Positions 12,910 to 15,594 of a stretch of 17,869 nt of DNA are shown piece after piece. The translations under genes were made by a program, and so were the position numbers. This DNA comes from Cytophagales bacterium (GTDB lineage Bacteria; Bacteroidota; Bacteroidia; Cytophagales; Thermoflexibacteraceae). Every line of letters starts with the position of its first letter. Position 1 is the stretch's first letter. The notes below the pieces were generated by a model. That model did not search any database, was not told the origin of the DNA, and was given only the letters and a program-made list of their open reading frames with translations. The DNA is taken from assembly GCA_043748455.1 (NCBI GenBank), contig JAYTNF010000169.1:1-17869 (forward strand). Direction: 5' to 3'.

Positions 12910-14056
12910 TTTTCTTTTTTTCCTTAAAAAGTTGATTAACATCGAGATTATACTGTTGGAAAAAATCATCTTCCCATTCTTTAATAAAACCGTCTTCTTG
13001 TAAGATAATTTCTGTTACTATGCTATTTTGTCCAAGTAAATTACGCTTAAAGAAAAATATTTTAGTTTTATCCAAATCTAATGTTTTCTTAGCAACAGCT
13101 AAACGAGCACCATTAAATATATGCTCACTATGTGTTTCACAAAAAATCTGCACGCCATTTTGTGCAGCCAAACACATTAATTCGGCAAGTTTTGACTGCC
13201 CTTTTGGGTGTAAGTGTGATTCGGGGTTTTCTATGATAAGTAAATCTCCTTTTTCTGCGGTTAGTAAAGCTAAAATTACAGAAAAAACATAACTCACACC
13301 AAAACCTACATTTTTAGGTTTGAAAGCTATGGTTGTATCTTCTATTTGGCTTTCATTGAGAAAACGAAACTTATATTCAACAGCTATTTTTGTGCTATCA
13401 TTTTCGTCATAATCAGCTTCTACCATAATATTAGGGCTGATTTCACTTAACCAAGCATTAATTTGGTCTTTGATTAAATTAGAAGTAGCCTTAGAGTGTT
13501 TTAAACTTTCGTGTGAAATCGGTGTTAATCTATTTTTTACAAAATATTGCCAAGCATATTCTCCTGTTTTACCAAAATCTTTATTTTCTAGTTTTTTATT
13601 ATCTGTATTATATCTGCCTTCATCACTTATTCTTTCTGCTTTTAAGTATTGGAACTTTTTAGGCGAAAAAATAGCTTCTTGTTTAGTATCTGTTTTTAAG
13701 ACAGAACTTTTAACTGAAACTTGGTTATTCTCCTTATTACTTTCAGAGTAACCAACAGTTTCAATATTTATTTTCTGTTCGTTAATATCAAAAATAAATT
13801 TAATAGAATTTTCTTTTTTATCAAATAAGAAAAAAATTGCATCTTTATATGTGCCAATATCTATATATTCTCCTTGCAGATTTATATTTTTTTCTTTTTT
13901 TGATAGTGTATCAGAAGATTGCCTAAGTAAAAGTAGACTTTGAATTACAGAAGATTTGCCAACACCATTCAAACCCGTCAAAATATTCAAATTTGCACAA
14001 TTTATTTCAATGTCTTTTAAGGATTTGAAATTCTTTATGTGTATATTATTTATCAT
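12890..14056 (-). CDS. AAA_21/ABC-type (OLD/RloA-like) ATPase of 388 aa, with a DUF3696-like C-terminal region.
   Basis: The N-terminus IHIKNFKSLKDIEI...LNILTGLNGVGKSSVIQSL carries the Walker A motif GxxGxGKS. GDLLIIENPESHLHP matches the Walker-B/D-loop region of AAA_21-family proteins (hhhhE-N-PE..LHP). CETHSEH matches the H-loop. A 4-bp ATGA overlap with the upstream gene lies at 14053-14056. Confidence 0.8.
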   Translation of the reverse strand: MINNIHIKNFKSLKDIEINCANLNILTGLNGVGKSSVIQSLLLLRQSSDTLSKKEKNINLQGEYIDIGTYKDAIFFLFDKKENSIKFIFDINEQKINIETVGYSESNKENNQVSVKSSVLKTDTKQEAIFSPKKFQYLKAERISDEGRYNTDNKKLENKDFGKTGEYAWQYFVKNRLTPISHESLKHSKATSNLIKDQINAWLSEISPNIMVEADYDENDSTKIAVEYKFRFLNESQIEDTTIAFKPKNVGFGVSYVFSVILALLTAEKGDLLIIENPESHLHPKGQSKLAELMCLAAQNGVQIFCETHSEHIFNGARLAVAKKTLDLDKTKIFFFKRNLLGQNSIVTEIILQEDGFIKEWEDDFFQQYNLDVNQLFKEKKKNANISK

Positions 14057-15594
14057 TTAGTAATTTCTTTTATAAGTTGTTCAATGGTTGAAAACCGAAT
14101 TCGTAAATTTTCACGAGTATAAGGTTGTTCTTCAATAGATTGTGTAAATTTAGATATTTTATTAAGTGTAAGAGCAGCTTCTTTAACAATTTTTTTCCTA
14201 CTTTTCAAAATCTCTTGTTGTTCTTTCGTAGCTATTGAAATAGCATAAGTCCAAATTTCAAAAATGGAATTAATAAAACCTGTATTTTGTCCACCTATCA
14301 TAGCTTTGGTAAAAGCTATTTCACCAAAAATATAATCTATAACAAAAAGAACTTCTTTAAATTCTTCGTAATATTTAGTCATTAATTCCTCAAAAGCAAA
14401 TATTTGTGTCATTGCGTCATCAAGTAATTCGGTACTATTGGTTTTTATGTCCTCGTAATGTGTCATTCGAAAAGCCAAATAACGCAAAGCTATTTCTCTA
14501 TCTAACATTCTTTCTTTATTAATTTCAGATACAGGAACTACTTTTTCAAAAATTGGTGTAATCTTATCATCTGTAAATTTTGCCAACCAATTTGCAGGTT
14601 TTCCCTGATTAAGTGCATGGCGAATTTCTTGTGAGGCAAGACTCAAAGCACTAGTATTAATGGATTTAAAAATTTTATATTTAACCGTTTTTGGGGTTGG
14701 AGGTTCAATAATATAAGTTATAGCTTCATATTCCTCTATATTCCTTTGTGCAGAACGGGGAAGTTGGTCAAAATTTTTGCCTTGATATTGAGGTAAATAA
14801 TATAATTCTTGAAGCAAAAAACTTTTATCTATGACAAACTGCTTAATAGCTGTTAGACGTTGAAGTCCATCTACAATTTGCCAAATATCTTCTTCTTCTG
14901 TCGTTTCTGTAGAGTCAAAATAAAAAGCAGGAATGGGTTGTTTGACAATTAAGGCTTCGATTAATCGACTTTTTGTATCATCAGTCCACAAACCTGATTT
15001 TCGTTGAAAACCTGTATTAAGATTAATCTCGTTATATTTTATACGTTTTAATATTTTATCCAAAGTCATTACACCTTGTCTAACATTAATTGTAAGTACA
15101 TCAATAGGTAAACGGTCTGGTCTAAGACTTTCTTTTTGAATTTCTACAATAGTTTCAAAATTATCAGGAATGGTAATACTTTTTATTTTTTCTAAATTAT
15201 TTTCTGCTCTTAATGCCTTTTTAAGTTCATTTTTTACATAAAACCTCCCTGCGTCATTCAGCAAAATTTGACGTAAATAAGCATTATTCTGACGAATAAT
15301 TAGTAGTTTTTCTGATGGAATAACATTTTTTTCTTCTGTAAAAATAGCTAAGTTAAAAGTTTCACTATCAAAAATAAAATCCCCATATTGAAGTTTTAAT
15401 AATTTTTTAGCAGTGTAATGTTTTTGAATATTTTTATAAGAAATATATTTAGTATTTTCAATAAAAATTTTATCATCTTTAAAACAGTCCGAATTTAAAA
15501 ATAAATAAGCTCCCTCACTGTCATTATCAGTTAAATATTGAGGTAAAATAGGTATTCCCCACGATATATTTTCCGCTAAATCTTTAAGTTGCAT
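14053..15594 (-). CDS. Fusion protein of 513 aa. The N-terminus is a type I restriction-modification S-subunit-like target-recognition domain (TRD). A central DUF262/ParB-like (GmrSD-N/BrxU/SspE-type) domain follows. The C-terminal region is helical and lacks an HNH/DUF1524 motif.
   Basis: Residues of roughly 10-150 follow the HsdS TRD pattern: ISWGIPILPQYL..., ...NTKYISYKN..., KLQYGDFIFDSETFNLAIF..., IPSEKLLIIR and AYLRQILLNDAGRFYVKNE. The DUF262 signature reads GFQRKSGLWTDD...RLIEALIVKQPIPAFYF...WQIVDGLQRLTAI, where the canonical core is DGQQR. The C-terminal 180 aa have no H..H/N nuclease motif. Confidence 0.7.
   Translation of the reverse strand: MQLKDLAENISWGIPILPQYLTDNDSEGAYLFLNSDCFKDDKIFIENTKYISYKNIQKHYTAKKLLKLQYGDFIFDSETFNLAIFTEEKNVIPSEKLLIIRQNNAYLRQILLNDAGRFYVKNELKKALRAENNLEKIKSITIPDNFETIVEIQKESLRPDRLPIDVLTINVRQGVMTLDKILKRIKYNEINLNTGFQRKSGLWTDDTKSRLIEALIVKQPIPAFYFDSTETTEEEDIWQIVDGLQRLTAIKQFVIDKSFLLQELYYLPQYQGKNFDQLPRSAQRNIEEYEAITYIIEPPTPKTVKYKIFKSINTSALSLASQEIRHALNQGKPANWLAKFTDDKITPIFEKVVPVSEINKERMLDREIALRYLAFRMTHYEDIKTNSTELLDDAMTQIFAFEELMTKYYEEFKEVLFVIDYIFGEIAFTKAMIGGQNTGFINSIFEIWTYAISIATKEQQEILKSRKKIVKEAALTLNKISKFTQSIEEQPYTRENLRIRFSTIEQLIKEITK

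Follow-up and report, generated by a model that had tools for sequence, protein, structure and literature searches.

What is a target recognition domain (TRD) of the kind found in HsdS, the subunit that confers specificity on type I restriction-modification (R-M) enzymes, doing on a DUF262 protein whose operon contains no methyltransferase? The question is raised by a stretch of 17,869 nucleotides from a Cytophagales bacterium (GenBank assembly GCA_043748455.1, contig JAYTNF010000169.1), referred to here as the window, in which an earlier note had singled out such a protein at positions 14053-15594. The protein is NsnA, and the profile and domain matches of the three genes mark the operon, in this member of the Bacteroidota, as the three-gene anti-phage system Menshen (NsnABC). 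We propose that NsnA is a Type II Menshen sensor onto which an HsdS-type TRD has been grafted as a DNA reader acting in cis, and that it signals through the ATPase NsnB to the effector NsnC; we give this reading a probability of roughly 0.6.

In the published bioinformatic model of Menshen, NsnA is the DNA sensor, NsnB is a tetrameric transducer that binds NsnC through its DUF3696 tails, and NsnC is the effector, consisting of an inactive PIN domain and a nuclease that in most cases is a BECR RNase (Li et al., Nucleic Acids Research 2025, PMC12065111). By experiment, all that is established for Menshen is protection by the S. silvestris prototype against T2, T4, T6 and Fado. Type II Menshen, defined by an additional sensor domain at the N-terminus of NsnA, accounts for 23% of NsnA and comprises at least 33 families, one of which, PsTRD1, has a TRD-like N-domain that is structurally similar to the domain that gives type I R-M enzymes their specificity (PMC12065111). 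The system in the window shares with PsTRD1 both the NsnA-NsnB-NsnC set and the order of domains within NsnA, namely a TRD-like N-domain, ParB-DUF262 and helical ParBDB, and we infer that its TRD family is PsTRD1 from nr/RefSeq membership (P0040, Pedobacter cryoconitis). The architecture has thus already been catalogued (PMC12065111), the system in the window is confirmed as a largely known one, and the surprise for a specialist is modest. What is new here is the sequence link to Methylase_S, the exact boundary of the domain and the loss of the helix that follows it, Esub1 as the closest solved relative, the absence over 16 loci of any methyltransferase that is conserved next to the cassette, and the mobility of the cassette.

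Domain structure of NsnA

The nsnA gene is an open reading frame (ORF) of 513 amino acids, running from ATG to stop at 14053-15594 on the minus strand. Its top match in PADLOC is NsnA and not GmrSD, with residues 141-512 aligned to positions 28-383 of the 385 in the profile (E-value 7.3e-91). Since the canonical NsnA profile matches only from residue 141, the first ~140 residues are an addition to the standard protein. The full-length AlphaFold2 (AF2) model has a predicted local distance difference test score (pLDDT) of 87, and the protein is divided as follows, the name ParBDB being that of Li et al. (PMC12065111):

14053..15594, minus strand: nsnA, the 513-amino-acid Menshen sensor subunit (TRD, linker, ParB-DUF262 and helical ParBDB domain)
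15166..15594, minus strand: residues 1-143, a single HsdS-type TRD that ends at a conserved S-I-T-I-P strand (139-143)
15055..15165, minus strand: residues 144-180, a short helix (146-155) and linker, corresponding to the 'loop' at the start of canonical NsnA
14605..15054, minus strand: residues 181-330, the ParB-like DUF262 (GmrSD_N) NTPase-type domain, from Pfam PF03235 and its motifs
14056..14604, minus strand: residues 331-513, the all-helical C-terminal domain (NsnA-C / ParBDB), from the AF2 model and the PADLOC profile, which extends to residue 512

The peptide motifs on which the earlier note had based its assignment are all located in the 513-amino-acid ORF. In the N-terminal part these are GIPILPQY (13-20), NTKYIS (47-52), KLQYGDFIFD (67-76), FNLAIF (80-85), LLIIR (97-101) and AYLRQILLNDAGRFYVKN (105-122), and in the DUF262 part FQRKSGLW (196-203), PIPAFYF (220-226) and WQIVDGLQRLTAI (238-250).

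The N-terminal target recognition domain

That residues ~2-143 form a genuine HsdS-type TRD is confirmed by three kinds of evidence. These are; 1) the fold, the AF2 model of residues 2-143 having a pLDDT of 91 and resembling HsdS TRD structures; 2) profile-to-sequence bridging, in which a profile of the TRD family leads to proteins that carry the Methylase_S domain of Pfam; and, 3) a profile-profile alignment by hhalign of the N-domain with an HsdS alignment, which has a probability of 98.4% and an E-value of 9.6e-15, well outside what chance would give. The structures matched, with the figure listed for each, are the PacII specificity (S) subunit (11.7), HsdS 1YF2 (10.6), HsdS 3OKG (9.3), MG438, EcoKI S and BsaXI S (8.8 each), M.TaqI (8.5), MmeI (6.0), PglX (5.9) and LlaBIII (4.0), together with CamA, BseCI, BpuSI and EcoR124 S, which are listed with no figure. 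When the TRD profile was run against 1.84 billion representative proteins, the long forms of NsnA came first (E-values from 1e-44 to 1e-16) and other architectures appeared from 3e-12 downward; among 109 matches of other architecture, 86 contain Methylase_S (best 1.7e-43) and 30 contain N6_Mtase, and in P0148 the TRD-profile match and the Methylase_S match span the same residues. The landmarks held in common with HsdS are a glycine at residue 13, Y-G-D at 70-72, I-I-R at 99-101 and I-x-I-P at 140-143. Against PDB sequences the same profile gave one match to a TRD-type protein, a weak one to Esub1 (E-value 0.025), which stands amid spurious ones and falls over an L-x-x-G-D...R-P motif.

The claim of the earlier note that the N-terminus is an HsdS-type TRD is therefore borne out by fold, by bridging and by alignment, and the region has both the profile similarity and the structural similarity to HsdS TRDs that a mere extension of the DUF262 N-lobe would lack. 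Queried with only the N-domain, a word-indexed search for homologues returned nothing, though the full-length query succeeded, which reflects a limit of the index and not an absence of relatives.

Fusions of a single Methylase_S-type TRD to domains other than methyltransferases also occur in the TRD-profile matches P0157, P0148, P0253 and P0198, the partners being HSDR_N_2 (PD-(D/E)XK-like), Schlafen/AlbA_2 and ankyrin repeats; HSDR_N_2 stands alone in P0157 and beside a partial N6_Mtase match in P0148. The occurrence of single TRDs on these other partners fits a portable reader module, and the TRD seems to be one that is widely reused.

Loss of the HsdM-docking helix and of a methyltransferase partner

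In HsdS an I-P strand is followed by a conserved-region (CR) helix of about 40 residues with the pattern P-x-L-x-E-Q-x-x-I, which pairs with a second CR and docks the methyltransferase subunit HsdM. In NsnA the corresponding region holds a helix of only ~10 residues in place of the CR coiled-coil helix, with pLDDT falling to 63-78, and the hhalign match to HsdS reaches the I-P motif but does not extend into the CR. Compared with HsdS (M. jannaschii 1YF2, EcoKI 2Y7H; Methylase_S), NsnA has the same TRD fold and detectable homology, but it has a single TRD where HsdS has two, lacks the long CR coiled coil, has no hsdM or hsdR beside it, and carries its TRD fused to DUF262. The loss of the CR coiled-coil helices means that it cannot act as a type I specificity subunit, and NsnA is not a functional member of the HsdS family in that sense. 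The closest solved relative, Esub1 of Streptococcus pyogenes (8VSQ/8VSR), is a stand-alone 'half S-subunit' of 23 kDa that forms a homodimer through a long dimerisation helix, whereas NsnA retains only a stump of this helix and has its TRD joined to a sensor of the ParB type.

The search for a methyltransferase was extended from the operon to its relatives. No methyltransferase family of Pfam matches any ORF of the window, and a hidden Markov model (HMM) for N6-methyltransferases found none in the window or in a 21-kb stretch (L005) of the 38-kb metagenomic source contig, which reaches 7 kb further upstream. In a set of 16 loci that have the TRD form of NsnA, the same model, which was built from gamma-class domains of TRD-fused enzymes so that other methyltransferase classes could escape it at single loci, gave a single match, compared with 29 in the positive control. 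In the same 16 loci no further TRD gene was matched by the TRD profile, and the 98 neighbouring ORFs contain no methyltransferase family that recurs. The statement that the operon lacks a methyltransferase thus holds, as does the description of a single TRD fused to DUF262.

The single match lies in locus L009, where an ORF of 473 amino acids (13636-15057, minus strand; E-value 1.7e-8) is convergent with nsnC at a distance of 54 nt; this ORF probably represents a defence gene that lies nearby and not a part of the system.

The absence of a CR helix, the presence of only one TRD and the lack of a methyltransferase partner, taken together, make the TRD of NsnA an orphan reader module and not a type I subunit. 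In this it differs also from M.TaqI, MmeI, BpuSI and PglX, whose TRD works with a fused gamma-class methyltransferase that NsnA does not have. The locus illustrates that TRDs circulate as stand-alone readers that have shed the helices for methyltransferase docking.

The DUF262 core and the operon

Pfam places GmrSD_N/DUF262 (PF03235) on residues 181-327 with an E-value of 8.4e-14, and its three motifs are intact, with QRxxxW at 197-203, DGxQR at 242-246 and FxxxN at 309-313. In 70 sequences Q197, R198, W203, D242, G243, Q245, R246 and N313 are invariant, so the nucleotide-dependent module of NsnA is presumably active, and in structural searches with Foldseek this part of the protein matches BrxU (7p9k) and the N-domain of pNOB8 ParB. 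NsnA has in common with GmrSD, BrxU and SspE a DUF262 domain that carries these three motifs and, after it, a helical domain of related type. It differs from them in having no DUF1524/HNH, in that the effector role has moved to NsnB and NsnC, and in the addition of the N-terminal TRD. No DUF1524/HNH or other nuclease family was found in NsnA by Pfam, and the analogy to a nicking module that the earlier note had drawn for the DUF262 protein consequently does not apply; the effector of the system is likely to be NsnC, not NsnA.

Behind nsnA, which comes first, lie two further genes of the same direction, each overlapping the one before it:

12890..14056, minus strand: nsnB, a 388-amino-acid ATP-binding cassette (ABC)-type ATPase with a DUF3696-like tail
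11923..12909, minus strand: nsnC, a 328-amino-acid putative effector, with its start set at M21 of the listed ORF

The stop of nsnA and the start of nsnB overlap by 4 nt in the sequence ATGA. NsnB is matched by its PADLOC profile with an E-value of 1.3e-101 and by Pfam AAA_15 (3e-26) and AAA_21 (2e-24), has a Walker A motif, GLNGVGKS, at residue 28, and scores 21.3 bits against DUF3696 of Pfam, just below the cutoff of 22. For nsnC the start is most likely M21 of the listed ORF (12909), which gives a 20-nt overlap with nsnB, and an identical protein of 328 amino acids is on record (P0259). The PADLOC models for NsnC match with E-values of 2.3e-8 (C-terminal half) and 3.5e-5 (N-terminal half, from residue 21). 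Its C-domain (window 11923-12300) contains a D..FE..H.GE..G motif that is common to most TRD-type loci and in which D, F-E, H and G are invariant; a profile of this domain found nothing in PDB. A homologue search with the whole protein returned only three close proteins, which indicates that NsnC diverges fast compared with NsnA and NsnB.

Conservation and mobility of the cassette

Full-length homologues of the TRD form of NsnA fall into ~70 clusters of 505-570 amino acids and 35-94% identity. They come mostly from metagenome-assembled genomes (MAGs) of Bacteroidota, Pedobacter cryoconitis (P0040) standing for the isolate genomes, and further down the list of homologues are canonical NsnA (~380 amino acids) and Mrr_N-NsnA forms (~625 amino acids). 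The species-representative genomes that have the TRD form are those of Paludibacter, Bernardetiaceae, Ohtaekwangia, Saprospiraceae, Bacteroidales and one member of the Desulfococcaceae. Where the contig allows, TRD-NsnA is followed by NsnB (370-391 amino acids) and NsnC (245-336 amino acids), and the order is kept in at least 13 further loci with varied flanks.

A copy in GCA_013299115.1 is 88.9% identical, and the nucleotide match is confined to window positions 12017-15630 (9965-13578 in L001, the corresponding locus); the last ~95 nt of nsnC diverge between the two. There the cassette sits between sucC and purA, and its flanks are unrelated to those of the window. Nucleotide similarity that is limited to the cassette, together with different flanks, shows that the three genes move as a unit. 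In Pedobacter cryoconitis the cassette adjoins genes for a relaxase, MobC and an HTH_17 protein.

Outside Bacteroidota, Desulfococcaceae bacterium HSG8 has a TRD-Menshen cassette (L010, 5257-8889) whose NsnA is 38% identical over its full length, which suggests horizontal transfer between phyla. In a Bacteroidia MAG (L013, 10001-11737) the nsnA homologue is split into ORFs of 132 and 352 amino acids, both of them matched by the TRD profile or by an NsnA match; a pseudogene or an assembly frameshift is possible.

Proposed mechanism

Our proposal starts from what is established above, namely which domains NsnA has and where they end, the intact DUF262 motifs, the layout and conservation of the cassette and the want of a conserved methyltransferase partner. 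With the single TRDs of MmeI, M.TaqI and PglX and the published model of Menshen as guides, we infer that the TRD binds DNA and may do so with sequence specificity, that signalling passes from NsnA to NsnB to NsnC, and what type of activity NsnC has. Specifically; 1) the TRD would read DNA in cis, as the single TRDs of those enzymes do, and so add affinity or sequence preference to DNA binding by the ParB-DUF262 and C-terminal helical domains; 2) engagement of DNA would flip the nucleotide-dependent DUF262 module; 3) this switch would be relayed to the NsnB ABC-ATPase; and, 4) NsnB would release or activate NsnC, probably a BECR-type RNase, and phage propagation would be halted. A single TRD reads a half-site of only 3-5 bp, and the motif alone therefore cannot separate phage from host, so that a further cue is needed. 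DUF262 may supply it by reading the modification status of the DNA, as happens in GmrSD, BrxU and SspE, or it may lie in the form or location of the DNA.

Of the programmable DNA readers that serve bacterial immunity, TRDs are the ones understood best, and TRD-NsnA accordingly provides an experimentally convenient handle on what Menshen senses and on how it distinguishes self from non-self.

A number of observations weigh against the proposal that the TRD is a cis-acting reader. DNA binding by the TRD is itself a prediction from the domain's family, and the charge of the domain, near neutral across the family (mean net +1, isoelectric point ~7.6), is uninformative. In single-sequence form, residues 1-171 found nothing relevant in Pfam (E-value up to 10), NCBIfam or PDB sequences, and 43 N-domains scanned singly against Pfam gave no Methylase_S match, so the TRD is highly diverged. 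The comparison of the N-domain with Methylase_S by HMM, which the earlier note had proposed, therefore has a divided outcome, being negative for single sequences in Pfam and positive by profile-profile alignment with hhalign. Mean pairwise identity is 29% in the TRD, 31% in the linker, 58% in DUF262 and 35% in the C-terminal helical domain; variability within NsnA is thus highest in the TRD, though only slightly above that of the C-domain. We also considered TRD swapping of the kind known from phase-variable hsdS and rejected it, as there are no swap-like outliers and the divergence of the TRD follows that of the core (r 0.67-0.79 for TRD against core identity); the pattern speaks for one acquisition and fast divergence after it, not for shuffling as in hsdS. 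AlphaFold3 modelling of the prototype predicted neither NsnA-NsnB nor NsnA-NsnA complexes (PMC12065111), which leaves the step from NsnA to NsnB unsupported. For the effector, the colicin E3 'Cytotoxic' family of Pfam matches weakly (E-value 0.007) in two of eight NsnC relatives, a hint that is compatible with an RNase effector, is no proof of one, and points only weakly to the type of NsnC. The gamma-class origin of the methyltransferase model, described above, belongs with these points.

Alternative explanations

One alternative, which we regard as rather unlikely, is that the TRD gives sequence context while DUF262 reads DNA modification, making NsnA a Type IV-like sensor that depends on both modification and context; self and non-self would then be told apart by phage hypermodification or host modification and not by a sequence motif. 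Such a role is known for the DUF262 of GmrSD/BrxU and SspE, which senses modified DNA, and BrxU is the best structural match of the full-length NsnA model outside the TRDs. It would also be in keeping with the absence of a conserved methyltransferase beside the cassette and with protection by the prototype against T2, T4 and T6, which carry glucosyl-hydroxymethylcytosine. However, the prototype also protects against the Bacillus phage Fado, no pocket for a modified base is apparent in the sequence, and it is PUA and frataxin-like N-domains that the published survey flags for modified bases, TRD-like domains being classed there as readers with no modified substrate (PMC12065111).

It is also conceivable, though in our judgement quite improbable, that the TRD is bait. 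By imitating the DNA-binding groove of R-M enzymes it would capture phage anti-restriction proteins (mimics of DNA like Ocr and ArdA, or Prx-like proteins), as a guard or decoy, and the capture would trigger NsnA, then NsnB, then NsnC, so that the system fires when a phage disarms type I R-M or BREX. Precedents for guarding of this kind are the triggering by Ocr of ABC-ATPase defence systems, PARIS among them, and PrrC, the guard of a type Ic R-M enzyme. Several of the matched TRD structures are complexes with Ocr (2y7c, 7eew, 9ex7, 8q56), and the fold motifs of the TRD are strictly conserved even as the parts for methyltransferase docking are all lost. Moreover, the phage protein paratox binds directly to the DNA cleft of Esub1, the closest solved structure and one with a single TRD (PMC11754733). 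The case for bait is nonetheless one of pure analogy; a surface that binds acidic mimics should be conserved, but the TRD varies more than any other part of NsnA, and the other 32 families of NsnA N-domains are mostly DNA-binding folds (winged helix-turn-helix, B3, PUA), which favours sensing of nucleic acid (PMC12065111).

A TRD that has lost ligand binding and serves solely as a structural, autoinhibitory or oligomerisation module would be consistent with its near-neutral charge, with a divergence so great that Methylase_S of Pfam goes undetected, and with co-divergence with the rest of NsnA in which no swapping is seen. We consider this hardly probable, however, as the TRD is full-length and of high predicted order in ~70 clusters across Bacteroidota and in one Desulfococcaceae genome, and as 77% of NsnA function with no N-domain (PMC12065111), which leaves no obvious role for a structural addition. 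Finally, the homology of the TRD to those of HsdS and the N6-methyltransferase-like ORF next to nsnC in L009 might suggest that NsnA is an alternative specificity subunit whose TRD docks HsdM, or HsdM/HsdR, encoded elsewhere, but this is essentially excluded by the absence of the CR helices of the HsdS-HsdM bundle, by the presence of one TRD only and by the lack of an HsdM-like gene in 15 of the 16 loci, and even Esub1, with its dimerisation helix, bound HsdM unconvincingly (PMC11754733).

Surrounding sequence

Rfam and tRNA scans of the window returned nothing. The region ahead of nsnA can be described as follows:

15595..15719, minus strand: intergenic region 5' of nsnA, with a terminator-like hairpin of the PIG-L gene and a TAtaTTTG element

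The TAtaTTTG element (15619-15626) is a candidate promoter element 25 nt ahead of the nsnA ATG, which we take to resemble the -7 promoter motif of Bacteroidota. Directly after the stop of the PIG-L gene, which precedes nsnA, is a perfect hairpin of 33 nt (15679-15711; AGAACTAACATTTC...GAAATGTTAGTTCT) followed by a run of T, an arrangement that is terminator-like. Near-identical copies of this hairpin are present at two intergenic sites in the related genome (L001, 15089-15121 and 16019-16051), where it matches the repeats on both strands, and it may be a dispersed terminator element similar to repetitive extragenic palindromes.

Elsewhere in the window, two divergent paralogous proteins of 198 and 199 amino acids (4504-5100, minus strand, and 5233-5832, plus strand) are 54% identical and both contain VEAKDED, and one of them has a weak PD-(D/E)XK match (PDDEXK_12, E-value 0.008). 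A direct repeat of 47 bp, ~90% identical, lies at 4432-4478 and 5142-5188. From 1 to ~4330 on the minus strand, an ORF of the alpha-2-macroglobulin family runs off the left end of the window; on the source contig its product is 1839 amino acids long, with MG2, A2M and bMG domains, and this large ORF accounts for the seeming gap in the ORF list over the first 4.3 kb. Lastly, an 828-amino-acid protein with major-vault-protein domains (MVP_shoulder, E-value 3.7e-31; Vault_3, E-value 6.7e-10) is encoded at 8462-10948 on the plus strand and adjoins a 7TMR-DISM/SpoIIE phosphatase gene at 5914-8136 on the minus strand.

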